From Candidatus Aphodovivens avicola (GTDB lineage Bacteria > Actinomycetota > Coriobacteriia > Coriobacteriales > Eggerthellaceae), in contig DVGW01000050.1 in NCBI GenBank assembly GCA_018712515.1, positions 1,119 to 65,118 of the forward strand: a stretch of DNA of 64,000 bases, in the 5' to 3' direction. Numbering within the stretch: position 1 is the stretch's first letter; each line of letters starts with the position of its first letter. This document shows, piece by piece, positions 5,815 through 21,627 of the stretch. The notes below the pieces were generated by a model that ran no database searches, was not told the DNA's origin, and saw only the letters and a list, made by a program, of their open reading frames with translations. The position numbers and the translations under genes were made by a program.

Positions 5815-7620
5815 CTATTCTCCTTCCTTTGCTCCCGCCGCCTCGGCGGCGAGAAGCTCTTCCGTTTCGGTCTCGTCGAGGACGACGGCGCCTCCGGTCG
5901 ACTGGAGGACGGGTGCGGCGGGGGCCGGAGGGGCGCCCGCCGCCACGCTGGCGGTCGCCCTGTCGCACCTTCCGTGCTCGTAGGGGGCCGCCCCTCCGGC
6001 GGCGGTGAGGCGCGCGTTGGGGTGGCGCGATATGTCCAGCTTGAAGTCGAGCATGGGACGCTCGCCGCGCACGAACAGCAGCGCGCGGGAGTTGTCGAGC
6101 ATGCACACCTCGTCGGAGGTCATGAGCTCGCGGCCCGCGATCTGCTGGTTGGTGGACCAGCTGCCGCCCCGTCCGGTGCTCTTCGCGTGCGTGTCCAGGT
6201 CTATGGTCTCCTTGCCCAGCAGCTCGCTTACGTACTTGTGGGTGGACTGCTCGTTTCCGCCCAGGTACAGGAACTCGTCGCAGTTGCCCACGATGGACTC
6301 CCACTGCTTGTCGAACAGCGCCTTGATCTGGGCCATGTTCTGGATGATGATCGACGCCGACACGCCGCGGCCGCGCATGGTGGACAGTATCTTCTCGAAG
6401 TCGTCGGGCAGGCTCACGTTGGCGAACTCATCCATCAGGAAGTGCACGTGGACGGGCAGCTGGCCGCCGTACTTGCCGTCGGCGAGCGCGAACAGCTGCT
6501 GGAACAGCTGGGTGTAGAGCATTGACACGATGAAGTTGAAGCTGGTGTCGTTGTCGGGTATCACCGCGAACAGGGCCGCCTTCCGCTCGCCGAGCGAGGG
6601 CAGGTCGAGCTCGTCGGCGGCGGTGAGCGACGCCAGGCCGTCGAGGTTGAACTTCTCGAGCCTCGAGGCGAGCGTCACCTGGATGGATTTGAGGGTCTTA
6701 GCCGATCCCGACCGGTAGCTACGGTAGTACTTCAGCGCGATGTGGCCGGGGTCCCTCATCTCCAGCCGGTCGAACAGCTCGTCGAGGACGGACGCGTAAT
6801 CGTCGTCGTCCTCGCGCACCTCGCCCGCGCGCAGCATCTCCATGAGGGTGGCGTAGTTCTGCTCCTCGGGCGGGGCCTCGTGCTTCAGGTAGAGCAGCAA
6901 CGCCAGGTGCAGCATGCCCGCGGCCGTGTCCCAGAAGGGGTCCTGGCTCTGCGAGCCCTTCGGCGTGGTCGCCTTGAACAGGTTGGTGTTGAGCCGCTGG
7001 GCGTCGGCGTCGTCGCGCACGTAGGCGAGCGGGTTGTAGCAGTGCGACCTGCCCATGTCCACGAGGTCGAGCACCCTCACCTCGAAGCCCTTGGCCTCGA
7101 GCAGGCCGCCCACGGTGCGCACGATCTCGCCCTTGGGGTCGAGCACCACCATCGACACGTTTCCCTGCGCGGCGTTGGGCAGGCAGAACCCGCGCGTCTT
7201 GCCCGCGCCGGAGCCGCCCACCACGAGCGTGTTCATGGACCTGCGGTGCGCGTGCGTGTCGTAGCTCATGCGGAAGCTGCGGGTGAGCAGCTTGTCGCCG
7301 GAGGGGTCGCGCCCGCGGTATCGCCGGGCTATGGCGCGCGGGTCCCCCCACTCGGCGCTGCCGTGCTCCTCGCCGGGACGCAGGTTTCTCCTGGTGAGCA
7401 GATACGCCCCCGCGCACGCCGCGTAGACGGCGGCGAACAGGGCGGCGCAGCGCGCGCTGCCCGGGACGAGCCCGGCCGAAAGCGGGTCGGCGAGGGACGC
7501 CGCGAGCGCGGGGAGCGAGAGCCCGCCTTCGAGCGCGGGCGCGACGACGAGGCCGGCCAAGGCGGCGAGGGGCGTGCCCGCCGCCCAGGCGGCGACCTTC
7601 CCCGCCGAGGGCCGCCTCAT
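5815..7620 (-). CDS. Type IV coupling protein (VirD4/TraG family)
   Basis: The track ORF 5815..8406 is trimmed to ATG 7620 (MRRPSAGKV), which overlaps the upstream stop as ATGA. N-terminal TM helices, Walker A VVGGSGAGKT, Walker B FLMDEFAN. Confidence 0.9.
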   Translation of the reverse strand: MRRPSAGKVAAWAAGTPLAALAGLVVAPALEGGLSLPALAASLADPLSAGLVPGSARCAALFAAVYAACAGAYLLTRRNLRPGEEHGSAEWGDPRAIARRYRGRDPSGDKLLTRSFRMSYDTHAHRRSMNTLVVGGSGAGKTRGFCLPNAAQGNVSMVVLDPKGEIVRTVGGLLEAKGFEVRVLDLVDMGRSHCYNPLAYVRDDADAQRLNTNLFKATTPKGSQSQDPFWDTAAGMLHLALLLYLKHEAPPEEQNYATLMEMLRAGEVREDDDDYASVLDELFDRLEMRDPGHIALKYYRSYRSGSAKTLKSIQVTLASRLEKFNLDGLASLTAADELDLPSLGERKAALFAVIPDNDTSFNFIVSMLYTQLFQQLFALADGKYGGQLPVHVHFLMDEFANVSLPDDFEKILSTMRGRGVSASIIIQNMAQIKALFDKQWESIVGNCDEFLYLGGNEQSTHKYVSELLGKETIDLDTHAKSTGRGGSWSTNQQIAGRELMTSDEVCMLDNSRALLFVRGERPMLDFKLDISRHPNARLTAAGGAAPYEHGRCDRATASVAAGAPPAPAAPVLQSTGGAVVLDETETEELLAAEAAGAKEGE

Positions 7621-9215: not shown

Positions 9216-10539
9216 GCTCTGTCTCCTTCCTTTCCGTTTCGTCCCGCCCGCCGCGCTCGACCTCCGCGATGCGCCGCGCGAGCCCCGGGCCCCTTTCGCG
9301 GATGCCGTCGCAGAGCCCCAGGTCCCGCCTGATGCCCTTCAGCTCCGCGGCGATTTCCGCGATCCGCGGGTTCGGCGCCGCCGGCTCTCCCCGCGCCCTG
9401 CGGAGGCGCCTCGCCTCGTTTCGCAGCGCGCGCCGTTCGCCGTCCAGGGCCGCCATGCGCTCTTTGAGCGCCTCTTCGTGGGCGAGTAGCTGCCCCTCCG
9501 TCTCGATCCCGTTTTGCGTGAGCAGCGCCAGCTCTCGCGAGATCGCGTCGAGGTTGCGGAGGTCCTCGCGCAGCAGGAAGTGCATGCGGGGGCCGCCCGC
9601 GCCCTGGCGGCGCGGAGCGTTGAGCATCGCCATGTAGCGCCGGTACAGGCTCACGAGGGAGCGGGCCGGGACGGGCGTGGGCTTCGCACGGGTCGGTCTG
9701 GGTCTGCCCACTGGCAGGCGGGGGCGGGCGCTCGAGAGGATGCGCGCGGATATGCCTTCGTAGGAATACCCGTCCCCGAAGTTGCGGCGCAGGCGTACGA
9801 AGCGCTCCTTGCCGGGCGGGCGCACGGAGATGTCCTTGCCCGTCTTCACCTCGTAGCCCATCGCCCGCAGGTTCGCGTAGAACTGGCGCATGGTGGACGC
9901 GCGCGCCACGGCCTCGTCCGCGTCGGCCTTCACGAGGGAGCGCCACGTCGGCCTGCCGTCGCGCTCGGCGCGCCACTCCGCGTAGTGCCTCGACCTCCCC
10001 GGCTCCGGGCGGTCGACCACCGACAGGCCGCGCCCCCGGCACAGCCTGTCGGACGCGCCGCGCATGGCCCGGTAGCAGGCGGTATCGCGGTGGAGGCGCC
10101 TGCCGTCGGCGAAGGAGACGGAGTTGATGACGAAGTGGTTGTGCAGATGCGCCTTGTCCAGGTGCGTGGCCACCACCACCTCGAACCGCGCGCCCCACAG
10201 TTCCCGCGCGAGCGCCACCCCGATTTCGTGCGCGGTCTCGGGGTCTGCCTCGCCGGGCGCGAACGCCTGGTAGCCGTGGAACGCGACGATGCCGCCCTCC
10301 TTGCCGTACTGCCGCTTGGTGGCGTTCATCTCGGCGAGCGCCGTCTCGGGCAGGCAGTTGACGCCGGAGACGTAGCGCTGCTCCTCGGTCTTGCCGGGGT
10401 CCGCGGCGTAGAGGATCGCGGCGCCAACGCCCTGGCGTTCCCACTCGTCGGGCGCGCCCTCGGTCTTGGCCGGGTTCTCCGCGTAGCCCAGCACGCGGGC
10501 GAGCCGCCCCTCCACCTTCCATATCGAAGTGACGGCCAA
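9190..10539 (-). CDS. Relaxase/mobilization nuclease
   Basis: 449 aa. His cluster HLDKAHLHNHFVINSV. TTG start after GGAAGGAGGGG. Sits directly downstream of mobC. Confidence 0.85.
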   Translation of the reverse strand: MAVTSIWKVEGRLARVLGYAENPAKTEGAPDEWERQGVGAAILYAADPGKTEEQRYVSGVNCLPETALAEMNATKRQYGKEGGIVAFHGYQAFAPGEADPETAHEIGVALARELWGARFEVVVATHLDKAHLHNHFVINSVSFADGRRLHRDTACYRAMRGASDRLCRGRGLSVVDRPEPGRSRHYAEWRAERDGRPTWRSLVKADADEAVARASTMRQFYANLRAMGYEVKTGKDISVRPPGKERFVRLRRNFGDGYSYEGISARILSSARPRLPVGRPRPTRAKPTPVPARSLVSLYRRYMAMLNAPRRQGAGGPRMHFLLREDLRNLDAISRELALLTQNGIETEGQLLAHEEALKERMAALDGERRALRNEARRLRRARGEPAAPNPRIAEIAAELKGIRRDLGLCDGIRERGPGLARRIAEVERGGRDETERKETEHGRIERSR

Positions 10540-10540
10540 T

Positions 10541-10870
10541 TCAGCCCCTCCTTCCCGGCTCCTTGACCGCCGCAGCTATCTCGGCGAGCGCGGCCTCCAG
10601 CTTCCGCGCCTCGGCGTCGTAGCGCGCGGCGTCCACGACGTTCAGGACATGCGCCTTGCGGGCTATCTGGTTGAGGTTGCTCCCTATCGCATGCAGCTCG
10701 CGCGCCATCGCCAGGTAGTCGGGCGGGGGCTTGGGCTTCGGCTCGATGCCGCCTATGAGCGCCCGCAGGTATGCCTCCTGCGACCAGCCCGCCGCCCCCG
10801 CGGCCGCCTTCAGCCGGGCCAGCTCGTCCTCGGTGAGCCTCACCGTCGCCTTCCGCGTCCGTCTTTCCAC
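10541..10870 (-). CDS. mobC: MobC relaxosome accessory protein
   Basis: The track ORF is trimmed to GTG 10870 (RBS GGAGG, 7-nt spacer). 109 aa with the RLTEDELARLK...ELHAIGSNLNQIARKAH MobC signature. Confidence 0.8.
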   Translation of the reverse strand: MERRTRKATVRLTEDELARLKAAAGAAGWSQEAYLRALIGGIEPKPKPPPDYLAMARELHAIGSNLNQIARKAHVLNVVDAARYDAEARKLEAALAEIAAAVKEPGRRG

Positions 10871-15362: not shown

Positions 15363-18300
15363 CTATCTCTCCATAAGGAGCTCCTTCTCGACGGGCCTTC
15401 CATCTTCGCCGCCATCGCAGAGCAGCTCGGGGCCTCCCTTCCCCATGTCGAGGAGGGCGTCGAGCTCGGCGAGGCGGGCGGACTTCTCCCTCAGCCGCTC
15501 TTCATGGGGGAACGGCTTCGAGGCCTCCTCCCGGGCCGCGGCGAGCTGCCTCCTCGCCTCGTCGGCCTTCGCGCGGCAGTCCTCCAGCTCGCGCGGGATC
15601 CTCGCCATCGCGTTGTCGATCCTCGTTACGATTCCGGAGGGGTCGGATCCCATGGCGCACCTGTGGCGCGCGTCACCGACGATGACGACCTCGAACGCGG
15701 CGTCGACGCGGTTGAAGTAGAGCTCGAGCGAGAACCCGCGGTACGCGCCCAGGGGCTCGCTCCGAGCGTCCGCCGCCAGGCCGCATGCGGCGATGATCGC
15801 CTCGCCTGCTGCGGCGCGCCCGCTTTGCACCGTTCCGCGGACCTCCATGAGGAACGCTTCCTTCGCGGGCGGCGGGTTGGCCCGCGCCCTCTCCGCGTCG
15901 GCCTCCAGCTTCTCGGCCTGCGACGCGAGGGCCGCTATCCGCTCCGGGTACTCCCTCGCCGCCTTGTCCTCCAGCGCGTATCTCTGGGCGAGGTGGTCCG
16001 CCTTCAGCACCCTCAGGCGGGACACCTCCACCTCGAGGTCCATCCTCTCCTTTATGAGCGGGTTTCCCGTGGCGAGCGCCTTCAGCTCGGCGTAGGAGAG
16101 CGCCGCCTCATCCACGTCGGACGCCGACCTCACGGGCGACTTCGAGGTCATGACCTGCCCGATGAAGCGCTGCTTGCCCTCGACCACCTGGTACAGGTAC
16201 GCATCGAAGGTGCCCTCGGTCACGTAGCGGTACGCTTCGACCTCCTCGTTCATGTTCCCCTGGCGCTCGATGCGGCCGAGCCGCTGCTGGAGGTCGGCCG
16301 GCCGCCACGGGCAGTCGAGGTCGTGAATCGCGACAAGCCGTCGCTGCACGTTGGTCCCCGCGCCCATCTTCTGCGTCGAGCCCATGAGGATGCGCACCGC
16401 CCCGGAGTTCACCCTGCCGAAGAGCGCCAGCTTCTTCGCCTCGGTGTCGGCGTCGTGGATGAAGGCGATCTCATCATCGGGCACGCCCCGCTCCACGAGC
16501 TTGCGCCTCAGGTCGTCGTACACGCTGAACCCCGCGCCGCCCTTCGGTGTTGACAGGTCGCAGAACACGAGCTGGGTGAGGCGCTCGTTCGCTCCGTCGC
16601 GCCAGATGCGCAGGACGTTCTCCACGCAGGCGTTGACCTTGCTGCCCGCGAAATCGGGCAGGTCCGGGTCTTGGAGCCTCTGGTCAAGGGCGATCTTGCG
16701 CCCGTCGTTGGTTATGAGCAGCATGTTGTCCTTCTCGGCGGGTACGCGCCCGGCCCTCACCGCGTCGGCGCGCTCCGCGAGCCCCGCCACCAGCTCGCGC
16801 TGGATCGGCGACGGCTGGACGGCCACGCTGCGCAGGCGCACCCTCGGGACGGGCAGCTCCAGCATGTCTGCCGTCTGCACGTCGGCGACCTGCTTGAACG
16901 TCGCCATGAGCTCGGGCAGGTTGTAGAAGCGCGAGAACCGCGTCTTCTGGCGGTAGCCGGTGCCTTCCGGGGCCAGCTCCAGCGCCGTCACCGTCTCGCC
17001 GAACGTCGAGGCCCAGCAGTCGAAGTGGGACAGCCCCAGCCGTTCCAGCTCGCCGTACTGGAGGTAACGCTGCATCGTGTAGAGCTCCGCCATGGAGTTC
17101 GACACCGGGGTGCCCGTGGCGAACACGGTGCCGCGCCCGCCGGTCTGCCGGTCGAGGATGCGGCACTTCATGAACAGGTCGGAGGACTTCTTGGCCTCGC
17201 TCTGGGCGATGCCGCCGACGTTGCGCATCTTGGTGTGGAAGAAAAGGTTCTTGTAGTAGTGGGCCTCGTCGACGAAGATCCGGTCGACGCCCAGTTCCTC
17301 GAAGGTGAGCACGTCGTCCTTGTCCGACTGGTCTGCCAGCTTGGCGAGCCTGGCCTCCAGCCGCTTCTTGGTCGCCTCCATCTGCTTTACGCCGAAGCGC
17401 TCGCCCCTCTGCGCCTTGAGGTCGGAGATCCCGTCGGCTATCTCGGCTATCTGCTCCTCGATGAACGCCCGCTGGCGATCCACCGAGACCGGTATCTTCT
17501 CGAACTGCGTGTGCCCGATGATCACGCCGTCCCAGTCGCCCGACGCGATGCGCGCGCAGAACCGCTTGCGGTTCTGCCTTTCGAAGTCGCGCTTCGTCGC
17601 CACGAGCAGGTTCGCCGCCGGGTAGAGGCGCATCCATTCCGAGGCCCATTGCCCGGTGAGGTGGTTCGGCACGACGAACGTCGGCTTGCTGCACAGCCCC
17701 ATGCGGCGAAGCTCCATCGCCGCCGCGGCCATGGTGAACGTCTTCCCCGCGCCCACTTCGTGGGCGAGGAGCGCGTTGCCGCCGTAGAGGATGCGCGCAA
17801 CGGCGTTCCTCTGATGCGGCCTCAGCTCGATCTCGGGGTTCATCCCGGGGAACCGGAGATGCGACCCGTCGAACTCGCGCGGCCTCGTCGAGTTGAACCT
17901 CTCGTTGTAGACGGCCGTCAGCCGTTCGCGGCGGGCCGCGTCGGAGAAGACCCATTCCTTGAAGGCGGACTTGATAGCGTCCTGCTTGGCGAGCGCCACC
18001 GCGGTCTCCTTCCTGTTGAGCACCGCCTTCTTCCTGCCGTTCTCGTCCTCCGTGTAGTCGACCACGCGCGCGTCCTTCAGGTTGAGGGTCTCCTCGATGA
18101 TCTGGTAGGCGCTCATGCGGCGGGTGCCGTAGGTCGACAGCGCCCGCACGTTGGAGCCGTCGCGTCCCTTGCCCTCGATCCGCCACTGCGCCGTGACGGC
18201 CGAGTACCGCACCGCGATGCGCTCGCGCACCCAGTAGGGCGGCTCCAGGAGCTCGATGATGAAGTCCCGCACGTCGTCGGGCGGGATCCACGTCGCGCCG

Positions 18301-21300
18301 AGGCGCACGCCGATGTCCGCTGGCCCGATGTCGGGCGGCAGGGCGGCGCGCAGCGCCTCGGCGTTGCCCGCGAAGGCGGGATCCGCGGCGGCCGCGGCCT
18401 CGGCGACGCGCAGCTTCGCGCGTACGTTGCCGGACAGGTACTCGTCGGCGGGCTGCCATTCGGGCTCCCCCGGGGCGGCGTCAGGCGCGCGAAATATCTG
18501 GCCTGCGAGCCCCGCAGCCACCTCGTCCTCCGAGACCCCCGTGAGCCGCGCCATATAGGGCAGGTCGACCTTCCCTCTCTCCGACAGGGACGCCGCCAGC
18601 GCCTCCTGGGGCGTGTCCGCGCTCTCCACGGGCACGTTCGGCCTGATGGTTCTCTTCCGCAGGATGTCGGCCTTCCTGAGGAGGCCGCCGTCCTCGTCGA
18701 GCACCTCGAGCGCGCACAGCAGCGGGTAGGATGAGTCCTGCTTGAAGGCCGCCGCGTTCGCGCGGGAGCTCAGAAGGCCGTGCTTCGCGGTGTAGGCGTC
18801 GTAGAGGCCGTTCAGACGGGCGCGCGCCTCCTCTATCTCGGACTCCGGGGCGTCGTCGCTCTCGAGCCCGATGAGGCGCCGCGCGCAGTCGCGAACGCCC
18901 ATCATGCCGCGGATCCTCTCGGCGGCCGTCTTCGAGGGCGTCTGGGGATGCATGCGCGTCCCCATGCGGAAGTAGACGGTGCCGCCCTCCTCCGCATACG
19001 ACCAGTCGCGCACGCGCGGGTCGGCGGGGACCGAGCCGTCCGAGGGGGCCGGCTCGGGCACGGCGAGGGTTGGTATGCTGGCCGCTATCCTGCCGAGGGC
19101 TTCGCGCAAATCGGCCTCTAGGTCGCTCCCTGGCCTCTCCCGGCATTCGACGTCGGCCCTGCCGTAGGCGTTTCTCGTCGCGGCGAGCTCGCCCAGGACC
19201 ATCTCGGGATGGGAGACGAAGTAGGAGCTCACCTCCACGCCCGTCTCGGTGCGCTCTGTGTGCACCCACTCCGGATCGCAGGCCTCGGGCCTCGCGCGCT
19301 TCTGCATCACCACCACGTCCGCGGTGACTTCGGTGTGCGGGGCGAACGCCGTGCTCGGCAGGCGCACCGCGCCCAGGAGCTCGGCCCTTTCCGCAAGCCT
19401 CCTGCGGGCGGTGCCGCTCTTCTTGTCCAGAGTGCCCTTCGAGGTGACGAACGCCACCACGCCGCCCGGCCTCACCAGGTCGAGCGCGCGGGCGAAGAAG
19501 TTGTCGTGGACGAGCAGCCCCTCGCCCCTGTGGCGCGGGTCGTCCACCTGGTAGCTCCCGAAGGGGACGTTGCCGACCGCCACGTCGAACGAGTCGTCCG
19601 CAAGGTCGGCGCCCTCGAACCCGCAGTTGCGGATGTCGGAGCCGGGGTTGAGCGCTCGGGCGATGCGCGCGGTGAGGGGGTCGAGCTCCACGCCGACGAG
19701 CCGGCTTCCCGCGAGCGATTCCGGCATGCCCCTGAAGAACGCCCCCGTGCCGCACGACGGCTCGAGCACGCTGCCCCCCGCGAAGCCCATGGCCTCTATC
19801 GCCTCCCATATCGGGCGGACGATTCCGGGCGGCGTGTAGAAGGCGGTGAGGGTGGACGCCCTCGCGGCGGACCACTCCTCGCCGGTCAGCAGCGCCCTCA
19901 GCCGTTCGCGTTCGGCCGGCCATTTGGTCGACGATTCGTCGAACACGTCGGCGAGGCCGCCCCATCCGACGTAGCCCGCGAGCGCCGCGAGCTCCCCCGG
20001 GCCGGCGTCTCCGCCCCCTTCCTCGACGCGCAGAAGGGTCTCGATGGCGAGGATGTTTGCGCGCAGGCGCTCGAGCGGAGGCTCGCGCCGTCGGTTGGCG
20101 GCGCGGTCGGCCTCCGGGAAGAGGATGGGGAGCTGTCCCTGCTCGGCGGGTTTCTGCCCTGGAACGGGGGAAGCGGGCGAACCGCCCGCTTCCCCCGTTG
20201 CCCTTTCGCTGCCGCCCGCCGACGGCGGTTCCTGTCCTAGGCGAAGACCAGCTCGCGGATCGCCGTCGAGCGCGCCTCCTCCCGGATCGCGCCCATCTTC
20301 GCCGCCCAGCCCATCGGGTCGGCCGACTTCATGGCCTCGTCCACTCCCTGGCTCGCCGCCATGCGCGCCGTCAGGTCGTCCGCCATCTCCTGCGCCAGCC
20401 TCTCCGTCTCGGCCAGATGGCTCGTCAGCGCCCCGTCGGCCAGCAGGCTCGCCCGGAGGGCCGGTTTGCGTGCCTTCAGGTGCTCGTCTCTCATCGCCGC
20501 GAACGGACCCAGGGCCGCCTGGCTCTCCTCCGTCGTCAGGCGCGGGACCGTCGTTCCGTCCCTCTCCTCGTAGGAAAGCTTCATCCTCGCTCCTTTCTGC
20601 CGGTTCAGGATTCGGATTATCCCCGGAGGGCGCATCCGGCGCAAATGTGCGATTCGCGCGGGGGCCGCGTGCGGCGGCGAGCTCCCGCAGCGCCGTTTCG
20701 GCGGCGTCCGACACGGCGCACCCCAGGACGCTCATCGAGTGCGTCGTGTCGAACAGGCGGAGCGCGCCTTCCATGCGAGGAGATGCGGGGAGGATCCCCT
20801 CCAGGCCGCACCTCGCCGCTATCTCGTACCCCGCCGACGCCGCAGCCAGCTCCATGAACAGGGCCTCGGCCTCGGAGGACGGCAGCCCCTCGAGTCCGCT
20901 GCCCCTGCGCGCCTCCCCAAGGGACTCGAGGTGCGGCGCGGCGGCCGGCTCCAGGATGGCCGCCGCGGCATCGAGGATGGCCCCGGCGGCCCCCGATCCG
21001 CTCCCGGTGCCGAACGCGCTTCGAAGCGCCTCCTCGATGGCGGGCTCGTCTTCCGGCCCGGGGCTCCAGAGGTTCAGGGGCCGGGCGCCTTCGCCGGCGG
21101 CCGTGTCCGACACGTCGAAGTAGTAGCGCAGCTTGCCCGTGCCCGGCTCTCCGAAGACCGCGATGCCCACGGAGCCCCGCCGCACCCTGCGGCCGAACAC
21201 CTTGTTCCATCGCTCCAGCTCGAGCACCGCGACCGCATCGGGCCTCTGCGCGTAGACGAGGACCTGTTCGGGGAAGGTCAGCTTGTAGTTGCGGCCCGCC

Positions 21301-21395
21301 GATGCCAGGAAGGCCCTCCACTCCTCGGGGCTCGCGCTCAAGCTGGAGAGCGTTTCGCGGTACAGCTCTTGGATGGTCGGATACGTGCTCGCCAA
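15363..21395 (-). CDS. Polyvalent protein: ArdC-N-like domain, N6-adenine DNA methyltransferase and SNF2/DEAH helicase (DarB-like anti-restriction type)
   Basis: Uninterrupted ORF. Best start is TTG 21395 (RBS GAAGGAGG, 7-nt spacer). N-terminus FPEQVLVYAQRPDAVAV..WNKVFGRRVRRG. Methyltransferase motifs LEPSCGTGAFF and VGNVPFG. Helicase motifs HEVGAGKTF and FVDEAHYYKN plus C-terminal helicase motifs. The N-terminal boundary is uncertain because tnpV is nested in it. Confidence 0.8.
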   Translation of the reverse strand: MASTYPTIQELYRETLSSLSASPEEWRAFLASAGRNYKLTFPEQVLVYAQRPDAVAVLELERWNKVFGRRVRRGSVGIAVFGEPGTGKLRYYFDVSDTAAGEGARPLNLWSPGPEDEPAIEEALRSAFGTGSGSGAAGAILDAAAAILEPAAAPHLESLGEARRGSGLEGLPSSEAEALFMELAAASAGYEIAARCGLEGILPASPRMEGALRLFDTTHSMSVLGCAVSDAAETALRELAAARGPRANRTFAPDAPSGDNPNPEPAERSEDEAFLRGEGRNDGPAPDDGGEPGGPGSVRGDERRAPEGTQTGPPGEPAGRRGADEPSGRDGEAGAGDGGRPDGAHGGEPGSGRGHEVGRPDGLGGEDGRDPGGGALDGDPRAGLRLGQEPPSAGGSERATGEAGGSPASPVPGQKPAEQGQLPILFPEADRAANRRREPPLERLRANILAIETLLRVEEGGGDAGPGELAALAGYVGWGGLADVFDESSTKWPAERERLRALLTGEEWSAARASTLTAFYTPPGIVRPIWEAIEAMGFAGGSVLEPSCGTGAFFRGMPESLAGSRLVGVELDPLTARIARALNPGSDIRNCGFEGADLADDSFDVAVGNVPFGSYQVDDPRHRGEGLLVHDNFFARALDLVRPGGVVAFVTSKGTLDKKSGTARRRLAERAELLGAVRLPSTAFAPHTEVTADVVVMQKRARPEACDPEWVHTERTETGVEVSSYFVSHPEMVLGELAATRNAYGRADVECRERPGSDLEADLREALGRIAASIPTLAVPEPAPSDGSVPADPRVRDWSYAEEGGTVYFRMGTRMHPQTPSKTAAERIRGMMGVRDCARRLIGLESDDAPESEIEEARARLNGLYDAYTAKHGLLSSRANAAAFKQDSSYPLLCALEVLDEDGGLLRKADILRKRTIRPNVPVESADTPQEALAASLSERGKVDLPYMARLTGVSEDEVAAGLAGQIFRAPDAAPGEPEWQPADEYLSGNVRAKLRVAEAAAAADPAFAGNAEALRAALPPDIGPADIGVRLGATWIPPDDVRDFIIELLEPPYWVRERIAVRYSAVTAQWRIEGKGRDGSNVRALSTYGTRRMSAYQIIEETLNLKDARVVDYTEDENGRKKAVLNRKETAVALAKQDAIKSAFKEWVFSDAARRERLTAVYNERFNSTRPREFDGSHLRFPGMNPEIELRPHQRNAVARILYGGNALLAHEVGAGKTFTMAAAAMELRRMGLCSKPTFVVPNHLTGQWASEWMRLYPAANLLVATKRDFERQNRKRFCARIASGDWDGVIIGHTQFEKIPVSVDRQRAFIEEQIAEIADGISDLKAQRGERFGVKQMEATKKRLEARLAKLADQSDKDDVLTFEELGVDRIFVDEAHYYKNLFFHTKMRNVGGIAQSEAKKSSDLFMKCRILDRQTGGRGTVFATGTPVSNSMAELYTMQRYLQYGELERLGLSHFDCWASTFGETVTALELAPEGTGYRQKTRFSRFYNLPELMATFKQVADVQTADMLELPVPRVRLRSVAVQPSPIQRELVAGLAERADAVRAGRVPAEKDNMLLITNDGRKIALDQRLQDPDLPDFAGSKVNACVENVLRIWRDGANERLTQLVFCDLSTPKGGAGFSVYDDLRRKLVERGVPDDEIAFIHDADTEAKKLALFGRVNSGAVRILMGSTQKMGAGTNVQRRLVAIHDLDCPWRPADLQQRLGRIERQGNMNEEVEAYRYVTEGTFDAYLYQVVEGKQRFIGQVMTSKSPVRSASDVDEAALSYAELKALATGNPLIKERMDLEVEVSRLRVLKADHLAQRYALEDKAAREYPERIAALASQAEKLEADAERARANPPPAKEAFLMEVRGTVQSGRAAAGEAIIAACGLAADARSEPLGAYRGFSLELYFNRVDAAFEVVIVGDARHRCAMGSDPSGIVTRIDNAMARIPRELEDCRAKADEARRQLAAAREEASKPFPHEERLREKSARLAELDALLDMGKGGPELLCDGGEDGRPVEKELLMER
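20166..20196 (-). other. Perfect 14-bp stem, 3-nt loop hairpin just downstream of the tnpV stop, inside the polyvalent ORF
   Basis: GGGGGAAGCGGGCG-aac-CGCCCGCTTCCCCC, read directly. Confidence 0.6.
20237..20584 (-). CDS. tnpV: TnpV-like protein
   Basis: 115 aa from ATG 20584 (RBS AAAGGAG, 5-nt spacer). MKLSYEE...LGPFAAMRDEHLKARKPAL...LLADGALTSHLAETERLAQEM...MAASQGVDE...DPMGWAAKMGAIREEA...ELVFA follows the TnpV family pattern. It lies in a different frame of the same strand as the polyvalent ORF. Confidence 0.75.
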   Translation of the reverse strand: MKLSYEERDGTTVPRLTTEESQAALGPFAAMRDEHLKARKPALRASLLADGALTSHLAETERLAQEMADDLTARMAASQGVDEAMKSADPMGWAAKMGAIREEARSTAIRELVFA

Positions 21396-21495
21396 TGCGC
21401 CGCCTCCTTCGGGTGCGTTTGTTCGGTTCGCAGGGATGCCCCGCCTTGCCGCTCGGGGTAGAATCCGGGAGCCCGCCGTTCCGAGGGAGGTTCCC

Positions 21496-21627
21496 ATGAG
21501 GTTGAAGCTCGTTTTGAAGGTTCTCGTCGCCGTGGTCGCGGTCGCGCTGGCGGCCTACGTCTGTCTCGTCGCGTTCGGGGTGTACACCGCGCTCGACAGC
21601 GCCACGGCGGGATACTCCGCCCGCTAA
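21496..21627 (+). CDS. Small hydrophobic peptide, 43 aa (candidate)
   Basis: RBS GGGAGG 5 nt before ATG 21496. MRLKLVLKVLVAVVAVALAAYVCLVAFGVY is a single TM helix. It is antisense to the leader of the polyvalent gene. Confidence 0.35.
   Translation: MRLKLVLKVLVAVVAVALAAYVCLVAFGVYTALDSATAGYSAR

Follow-up and report, generated by a model that had tools for sequence, protein, structure and literature searches.

Polyvalent proteins that begin with an ArdC-N 'header' have been described from conjugative elements (Iyer, Burroughs, Anand, de Souza and Aravind 2017, PMC5512222). TnpV proteins, the founding member of which is that of Tn4451, were described from stand-alone genes located beside the serine recombinase TnpX in Tn4451/Tn4453 and in Tn6104-type mobilisable transposons (PMC3158075). 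Here, a stretch of 64,000 nucleotides from Candidatus Aphodovivens avicola (Eggerthellaceae; contig DVGW01000050.1, positions 1,119 to 65,118; referred to as the window, whose own numbering is used throughout) was analyzed, in which a complete tnpV gene lies inside the open reading frame (ORF) of a predicted polyvalent protein, on the same strand and in another frame. The window is most likely part of an integrative conjugative element (ICE) of Eggerthellaceae. We consider it probable that the two genes form a conserved same-strand overlapping pair, in which one polyvalent protein has a linker overprinted on tnpV and TnpV is produced by internal initiation.

As in the proteins described by Iyer and colleagues (PMC5512222), the large protein or its relatives combine an N-terminus that is ArdC-like by fold, a methyltransferase, an SNF2 helicase and (here in relatives) LPD domains in one polypeptide, and the gene lies in a conjugative-element neighbourhood. 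Those proteins carry ArdC-N, whereas the header found here is beyond the reach of the Pfam ArdC-N model, and their description does not mention TnpV, linkers or overlapping frames. The nested TnpV shares its Pfam family, size and N-terminal motif with the TnpVs of Tn4451/Tn4453 and of the Tn6104-type transposons; the transposon copies, however, are stand-alone and TnpX-adjacent, and the frame that stays open across nested tnpV contains 2-10 stops in them.

Embedded out-of-frame gene pairs are known from the Rz/Rz1 spanins of phage lambda (PMC5295617, PMC6139136) and from Bacillus subtilis comS inside srfA (PMC12915044). In these pairs as well as here, a larger gene encloses, on the same strand and in the +1 frame, a complete small gene that has start signals of its own, and both frames are kept (in the window 20237-20584 within 15363-21395). 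Unlike Rz1 and comS, the inner gene belongs to a widespread 115-aa Pfam family that is also found stand-alone, the outer frame is the inter-domain linker of a protein of 2000-3000 aa, and conjugative elements of two phyla have conserved the pair. Rz/Rz1 and comS were shown to be expressed in both frames, while the present pair is described from its sequence. Overlapping genes may also arise by overprinting, or when a gene loses its stop codon and runs into an adjacent gene in a different frame (Delaye et al. 2008, PMC2268670; PMC8227390, PMC6195259), and the combination of an old structured with a young disordered frame is usual for overprinting (PMC8227390, PMC6195259). Such overlaps resemble the pair described here in that its probable origin is an upstream gene reading into the next one in another frame, and in that the derived frame is biased and disordered-looking while the ancestral frame is more conserved. 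In contrast to them, the read-through would here cross all of tnpV and join a third gene in phase, with tnpV apparently remaining functional. The pair appears to be of the Rz/Rz1 and comS kind, but with two genes fused across a third that survives in another frame. Full-text literature searches combining TnpV with overlapping genes, polyvalent proteins, and overprinting in conjugative elements returned no description of this arrangement, and no described case of two genes fused across a surviving intervening gene was found.

Anatomy of the nested pair in the window

Taken mechanically from ATG 21497, the large ORF extends without a stop over 2044 codons (15363 to 21497, minus strand); a preliminary description of this DNA had given it as an uninterrupted ORF of 6 kb. 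This mechanical ORF was reproduced, but the true start of the protein is likely TTG 21395, which has GAAGGAGG 7 nt upstream and lies where homologues of the large protein begin with MASTY or MAIRY; the protein would then comprise 2010 and not 2044 aa. The first 34 codons of the mechanical ORF (21396-21497) lie ahead of this TTG and its Shine-Dalgarno (SD) sequence and have a GC content at third codon positions (GC3) of 0.60-0.67. They are probably an untranslated leader, because a GC3 signal is missing there and they precede the likely start and its SD. Pfam searches with the large ORF gave Methyltransf_25 (aa 577-647), ResIII (1222-1416), SNF2-rel (1241-1417) and Helicase_C (1675-1747), while N6_Mtase, WH_1, DUF8437 and Helicase_dom are the domains of metagenome-contig products identical to that of the window. 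LPD11 was found in relatives. Several enzymatic domains are thus present in one polypeptide, as is characteristic of polyvalent proteins.

Within this ORF, the tnpV gene for a protein of 115 aa was recovered as previously described, with AAAGGAG, a spacer of 5 nt (CGAGG, 20585-20589), the start ATG at 20582-20584 and the stop TAG at 20237-20239. The product matches Pfam PF14198 with E = 2.7e-23 and 82.5 bits (cut-off 27) over profile positions 2-111 of 111, and its frame is the +1 frame of the large ORF, since the distance of 913 nt between 21497 and 20584 leaves a remainder of 1 on division by 3. A search for the PF14198 family yielded thousands of single-domain proteins of 114-127 aa, with which the size of the nested protein and its own start and ribosome-binding site agree. 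A promoter scan around tnpV in the window found none. Proteins with exactly this sequence are listed by NCBI as 'TnpV protein' for Gordonibacter urolithinfaciens, Adlercreutzia and Eggerthella, which makes an Eggerthellaceae element the most likely source of the window. Its AlphaFold model (predicted local distance difference test, pLDDT, 88.8) consists of a beta-hairpin plus helices, and Foldseek detected no neighbour in the PDB below E = 2. A similarity of TnpV to lambda Xis has been proposed (PMC3158075); the Foldseek search of the PDB gave no support for it.

The codon-position GC profile follows the two genes. GC3 of the large frame is ~0.9 at 21400-20690 and again below ~20170, and it falls to 0.47-0.63 at 20687-20568, in agreement with the AT-richer third positions that had been noted upstream of tnpV. 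From 20584 to 20237 the GC-rich position (0.9-1.0) is position 1 of the large frame, which is position 3 of tnpV. The linker of the large protein (~175 residues, disordered) had been recognized from its G/P/E/D/R-rich composition as an off-frame read of real coding DNA. This holds, but does not by itself imply a lack of translation. No in-frame ATG, GTG or TTG had been seen between 20240 and 20041, and the large frame was found to be devoid of them over the wider span 20700-19947; the first one is GTG 19946 within the motif YVGWGGLADVFDE.

Conservation of both frames among relatives

Proteins homologous to the header domain were either short, extended by a tail rich in G/D/R/E/P/S, or fused in frame to TnpV, and back-translation by hand revealed that the tail results from reading tnpV DNA in a shifted frame. 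One genome per GTDB species was then scanned with an alignment (A2) restricted to the header domain. This gave 80 loci with ~37-58% GC and 54-85% identity to the reference, which belong to Lachnospiraceae, Oscillospiraceae, Christensenellales, Holdemania and others. In 73 of these, the header is followed by an ATG-start tnpV of 116-118 aa that is invariably shifted by +1, and no stop interrupts the header frame within tnpV. For almost all of the 73, this frame is free of stops on either side of tnpV as well and continues up to the locus end, over more than 1,800 codons where the contig allows. Three further loci are consistent with this arrangement but are cut by the contig end or have lost the tnpV stop, and in the remaining four foreign DNA interrupts the locus exactly at the tnpV SD.

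The nested arrangement was further present in a high-GC relative ~60% identical to the window, in plasmids of Monoglobus (ORF of 2559 codons), Cohnella (2086 codons) and Streptococcus suis, and in plasmids of Clostridium perfringens and C. botulinum with a GC content of only 23-25%. In the latter two, the tnpV-like +1 ORFs have 121 and 123 codons, and the next longest +1 run in a gene of ~2000 codons has 36-44. Nested copies are located in ICE or plasmid transfer regions. Thus, in the comparison with homologous elements that had been suggested, header and effector part were found in one open frame with tnpV nested in it at +1, with loci L011-L016 as the exception. This is the only lineage whose header frame is interrupted, namely by one TAG directly ahead of the tnpV SD; downstream of it the frame is open. 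It is because of this TAG that three genes of 273, 117 and 2635 aa are called there, a layout which appears to be a derived variant. That the locus consists of three separate units, as had been argued, therefore applies to L011-L016 only and fails in the more than 100 loci where the frame is continuous. Judged from these loci, which belong to two phyla and reach down to 23% GC, both frames are kept open and the pair qualifies as a conserved overlapping pair.

The following observations were made on individual relatives. The nested TnpV-like ORFs of the plasmids from C. perfringens (NZ_CP134263, locus L100), C. botulinum (NZ_KJ776581, L101) and S. suis (NZ_CP135064, L184) encode 118-145 aa, and the N-terminus of the S. 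suis protein is longer and divergent. The four interrupted loci (L068, L077, L081 and L082, at ~6830-6850 of each) come from independent genomes and carry foreign insertions at one and the same point, the tnpV SD (…QPE|S…). The insertion in L068 brings its own stand-alone tnpV of 123 aa, in which the frame kept open by nested tnpV has 15 stops. The tnpV SD may be an insertion hot spot for TnpV-carrying mobilisable transposons. In L045, a metagenome-assembled genome of Eubacterium, a second TnpV match (aa 3415-3527 of frame 1) was found at ~10240-10580, at a distance of ~5.5 kb on the downstream side of the nested tnpV.

Openness of the frame was compared with chance expectation in 27 lineages with less than 85% nucleotide identity, by redrawing synonymous codons of tnpV from each locus's own usage. 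This resampling predicts 2.2-10.8 stops in the header frame within tnpV per lineage, whereas none was observed in any of the 27. The probability of an open frame was at most 0.004 in 20 of the 26 Bacillota lineages. At third positions of tnpV, T has a frequency of 0.00 before codons that start with AA, AG or GA, where a stop would potentially form, compared to 0.04-0.25 elsewhere. As a control, 80 tnpV loci were collected from IMG/VR with an alignment of four TnpV sequences, 18 of which are preceded by a header and 62 stand-alone. All 18 header-preceded copies have no stop in the header frame and open spans of 470-1406 codons, while 2-10 stops interrupt the corresponding frame in every one of the 62 stand-alone copies; the remaining off-frame contains 4-17 stops in both groups alike. 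ORF length alone is not discriminating in loci of intermediate GC content, as +1 runs of more than 100 codons occur elsewhere in the large ORF, but it does discriminate in the plasmids with 23-25% GC. Both frames are thus open beyond chance in diverged homologues and selection maintains their openness. The suggestion that the linker truly double-encodes tnpV is supported by the +1 nesting and by the contrast between more than 100 loci with both frames open and none of the 62 stand-alone genes.

Initiation, constraint and competing explanations

The start signals of tnpV are conserved along with the frames. G/AAAGGAG, which reads Glu-Arg-Ser in the linker frame, precedes the invariant ATG by 6-9 nt in 26 of 27 lineages, and L084 has GAGAGGAG instead. 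All lineages thus possess an own initiation signal of the form GAAAGGAG + ATG. Pairwise differences amount to 0.34, 0.28 and 0.47 at the first, second and third codon position of tnpV, and the cross-lineage amino-acid identity is 0.55 for TnpV and 0.37 for the linker frame, from which it follows that tnpV is the primary constraint. Fourfold degenerate sites differ at 0.49 in nested tnpV compared to 0.65 in the adjacent header domain, and synonymous sites contain G at 0.48 and T at 0.10 in nested but G at 0.31 and T at 0.22 in stand-alone tnpV. A reduced and G-skewed synonymous freedom is expected if a second frame uses this position as its first codon base. We infer from these patterns that tnpV is the older and more constrained frame and the linker the overprinted one.

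Several observations weigh against an overlapping pair with two translated frames. In the window itself, the large frame stays open in 84% of trials (P = 0.84) when the synonymous codons of tnpV are permuted; given the GC3 of tnpV of 0.93, its openness there is no more than chance would give, and the case therefore rests on the relatives. The 27 lineages are related and hence do not represent fully independent events. The linker frame is poorly conserved (0.37), and among its three codon positions the 'wobble' one varies least, so that there is no evidence for a function of the specific linker sequence. The lineage of L011-L016, which accounts for 28 blocks of the public assembly collection, has a TAG before tnpV, showing that the fusion is not indispensable. 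A hairpin that is terminator-like in many relatives lies inside the ORF and might limit the amount of full-length protein. Finally, translation of either frame within the overlap is predicted from selection on the sequence.

TnpV might be made wholly or in part by a programmed +1 frameshift from the header frame, which would yield a header-TnpV protein of ~380 aa together with or instead of free TnpV, the internal SD acting as stimulator as in prfB. This would account for the four in-frame header-TnpV fusions in the database (P0009, P0017, P0025 and P0033) as well as for the SD-like element just upstream of the frame junction in every lineage, but we regard it as very unlikely. A check at the DNA or protein level was carried out for three of the fusions. 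P0025 (L017) is a decayed copy with several indels, P0009 comes from a contig of 3.5x coverage (L183) with a variant of L182 in which a 28-nt deletion removes the tnpV SD and ATG and joins the header to TnpV in frame, and the P0017 protein changes frame in the middle of tnpV. These proteins were rejected as natural fusion or frameshift products and are regarded as indel variants or decayed copies. Among the 27 lineages no conserved slippery sequence was present at the frame junction: both the spacer of 6-9 nt that separates SD from ATG and the preceding codons vary. The ATG is invariant, the N-terminus of TnpV (MxxITYT..GDY) matches that of stand-alone TnpVs, and the spacing between SD and ATG is typical of initiation, unlike the 3 nt of the prfB frameshift site. 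Since a shared slippery site is lacking and the in-frame fusions are indel variants or decayed copies, internal initiation is the most economical mechanism. Three ordinary genes, with the large frame open merely by GC-rich composition and the single ORF an artefact, are highly improbable as an explanation, even though the window has ~70% GC, the permutations left its frame open in most trials, other stop-free off-frame ORFs of 200-690 codons are common in it and L011-L016 are indeed built in this way. A stop at the end of the header part is missing, as is any ATG, GTG or TTG ahead of the conserved N-terminal motif of the methyltransferase part. The frame is likewise continuous in more than 100 loci whose GC content of 23-57% would lead one to expect 2-11 stops, and the stand-alone tnpV genes contain stops in that frame without exception. 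In addition, the +1 phase is invariant across lineages, and independent genes separated by spacers would not keep it. With the frame being continuous, the unusual initiation of a separate methyltransferase-helicase gene that had been considered is unnecessary.

A decaying, unexpressed relic of an inserted tnpV, with only the polyvalent protein being of relevance, would agree with the annotation of the C. perfringens, C. botulinum and S. suis plasmids, in which only the large coding sequence is marked, and with the TnpV model having no fold neighbour in the PDB. Such a relic is hardly credible, as the tnpV ORF with ATG and SD is intact in every undisrupted locus and the substitution rates fit the tnpV frame (position 2 < 1 < 3), with TnpV being better conserved than the linker. 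Moreover, the hidden Markov model E-values are 1e-30 to 1e-57 (~1e-15 in the plasmids with 23-25% GC), and in these plasmids the off-frame ORF of ~120 codons is three times as long as the next longest. It had also been put forward that a stop and a start were erased in this genome, either by an error in sequencing or assembly or by a fusion or frameshift that occurred very recently. The exact TnpV sequence is indexed in 228 blocks of the public assembly collection, and ten contigs were fetched for comparison with the window. Two of them (L001 and L006) are base-for-base identical to it over 6.3 kb and three (L002, L003 and L005) differ by ~1% with an unchanged frame structure. It is true that close metagenomic copies have indels or Ns nearby: other fetched contigs show private defects, namely a 98-nt deletion after the hairpin (L008), Ns at the hairpin (L009) and a nonsense change from GGA to TGA in the YVGWGG motif of the methyltransferase (L004 at ~3617, window ~19967), while L182 (6x coverage) has a 19-nt insertion in the header and L183 the deletion described above. 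Yet the architecture is kept down to ~25% identity of the header protein, also in isolates with complete genomes. The nested arrangement is neither an error nor a recent fusion, because independent assemblies agree and Bacillota and Eggerthellaceae share it, and the chance that such an event accounts for it is virtually nil.

According to the overlapping-pair reading, the outer gene would give rise to a protein of ~2010 aa with an ArdC-like header, a linker of ~175 residues, an N6-methyltransferase and an SNF2-type helicase, while the inner tnpV would be translated independently from the internal GAAAGGAG and ATG. The linker would need little beyond staying open and hydrophilic, which could be achieved by avoidance of T at those third positions of tnpV where a stop would form. 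Most likely, an upstream ArdC-like gene lost its stop and read through tnpV into a downstream effector gene. In a high-GC host, chance alone leaves the frame open and stop loss would have met the least resistance; selection would then have kept the fusion even at 23-25% GC.

Header, hairpin, annotation and implications

The coordinates of the features in the window are listed in Table 1. In the window and its relatives, neighbouring genes include those for ParA/ParB, a SpaA/NlpC-P60 surface protein, MobC, a relaxase, a TOPRIM/DUF3991 protein and SSB, as in the transfer region of a conjugative element or plasmid. Because of the GC content of ~70%, the window contains many long stop-free ORFs antisense or off-frame to the large gene, e.g. 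20739-21461, 20044-21123 and 16671-18734, all on the plus strand.

Table 1. Features of the tnpV/polyvalent-protein locus in window coordinates
Feature	Position	Strand	Properties
Polyvalent-protein ORF	15363-21395	-	2010 aa from TTG 21395; header, disordered linker, N6-methyltransferase and SNF2/ResIII helicase in this order (predicted)
Header domain, ArdC-N-like	20640-21395	-	N-terminal; ends at conserved NRTF motif; 31 homologues, E up to 4e-148
tnpV Shine-Dalgarno AAAGGAG	20590-20596	-	Glu-Arg-Ser in the large frame
tnpV	20237-20584	-	115 aa, +1 frame, wholly nested in polyvalent-protein ORF 15363-21395
Linker, large frame	20110-20639	-	G 26%, P 15%, A 11%, E 11%, D 9%, R 9%; ~two thirds overlaps tnpV
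Hairpin	20163-20199	-	17 Watson-Crick pairs, loop GTT, 38 nt past tnpV stop, inside polyvalent-protein ORF, no T-run
First in-frame GTG after tnpV	19946-19948	-	inside conserved YVGWGGLADVFDE motif; start of truncated 1527-aa 'helicase' of gene callers

No match of the header domain was obtained in Pfam or in a sequence search of the PDB. Its AlphaFold model has a pLDDT of 87.9, which drops below 50 from residue 246, exactly where the linker begins. In the fold comparison with the PDB, R388 ArdC was the best match (6I89, E = 3e-3, probability 1.00, template modelling score 0.47), followed by 6SNA, and Rad4 was found as a local fold match. The domain is therefore labelled 'ArdC-like', since R388 ArdC provides its two best fold neighbours, and it appears too divergent in sequence for the Pfam ArdC-N model. 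The previous label 'ArdC-N' is thus supported by fold only and not by Pfam or PDB sequence searches.

A hairpin following the tnpV stop had been reported as a perfect stem of 14 bp at 20166-20196; it does exist, but with the larger extent given in Table 1. A fragment of 101 nt around it folds with -60.5 kcal/mol (z = -4.4). The tail of the window hairpin is CCAGGGCA and not a T-run, and the terminator scan did not flag it, so it does not have the form of an intrinsic terminator. At the corresponding place, the high-GC relative with ~60% identity also forms a hairpin, but from a different sequence. In one Bacillota subtype, recognizable by a next module that begins ...ELPAFLDEK, an A-tract, a GC stem of 11-17 bp and a T-run TTTT(TT) are located 5-26 nt past the tnpV stop, and RNAalifold predicted 14 pairs for this subtype, of which 5 show compensatory changes. 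A comparable stem with a T-run is located 64-107 nt downstream in another subtype, and a third has none. Judged by its sequence, the hairpin appears real and recurrent, though not universal; between the several lineages that have it, stems differ by compensatory changes, and it is often terminator-like. Terminator-shaped hairpins 5-107 nt past the tnpV stop were seen in loci from L011 to L097, e.g. in L032 (7226-7252), L037, L043, L096 and L018. In relatives the 3' arm of the hairpin and the T-run encode a recurring peptide, ...LPAF(L) or ...SSAF.

It is conceivable, though in our view improbable, that nested gene and hairpin form a translation-gated switch. Ribosomes in the tnpV frame would stop roughly 5-40 nt before the stem, which has the shape of a terminator in many Bacillota elements and could then fold and end the transcript after tnpV, whereas ribosomes in the linker frame would cross the stem and block its folding, so that the effector part of 5 kb would be transcribed. 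Under this scheme, the two flanking genes would have become fused across tnpV in a high-GC host, owing to chance openness, and the fusion would then have been exported to low-GC hosts. If true, how much TnpV is made relative to full-length polyvalent protein early after DNA entry would be determined by the overlap.

The first residues past the linker (GQLPILFP at ~20120-20140 of the window) resemble the beta-clamp-binding motif QL[SD]LF. Directly past the linker, QLPILF (window), QQLSLFP and QQMSLFDF were observed, the occurrences downstream of tnpV being in L031, L033 and L011. By analogy, the polyvalent protein could dock on the sliding clamp through these residues.

Existing annotations do not represent the pair. 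The Prokaryotic Genome Annotation Pipeline (PGAP) of NCBI calls either tnpV or the large ORF, never both. In Monoglobus and Cohnella, TnpV is called while header and linker are unannotated or truncated; in C. perfringens, C. botulinum and S. suis only the large coding sequence is present ('helicase-related', 'SNF2-related' or 'DEAD/DEAH') and the nested TnpV-like ORF is absent from RefSeq. Gene callers applied to metagenomes report tnpV, a helicase cut at GTG 19946 and, in place of the ArdC-like domain, a spurious antisense ORF of 240 aa (20739-21461, plus strand).

The nested arrangement accounts for annotation errors that recur systematically in conjugative elements from gut Bacillota and Eggerthellaceae. 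Of tnpV and the large ORF, only one is retained by PGAP and Prodigal-type callers, which also cut the helicase at internal starts, drop the header or call spurious antisense ORFs, and domain-architecture censuses of polyvalent proteins and of TnpV are distorted by such calls. To our knowledge, long fully nested same-strand overlaps conserved across phyla are very rare in bacteria and usually contested; the present case rests on more than 100 natural replicates and on an internal control, the stand-alone copies of the same family. It would illustrate a route of gene fusion in which two genes are joined across an intervening gene that survives in the other frame and supplies a disordered linker. 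The TnpV family is moreover physically tied to the anti-restriction/establishment module of these elements, which provides a context for tests of its function.

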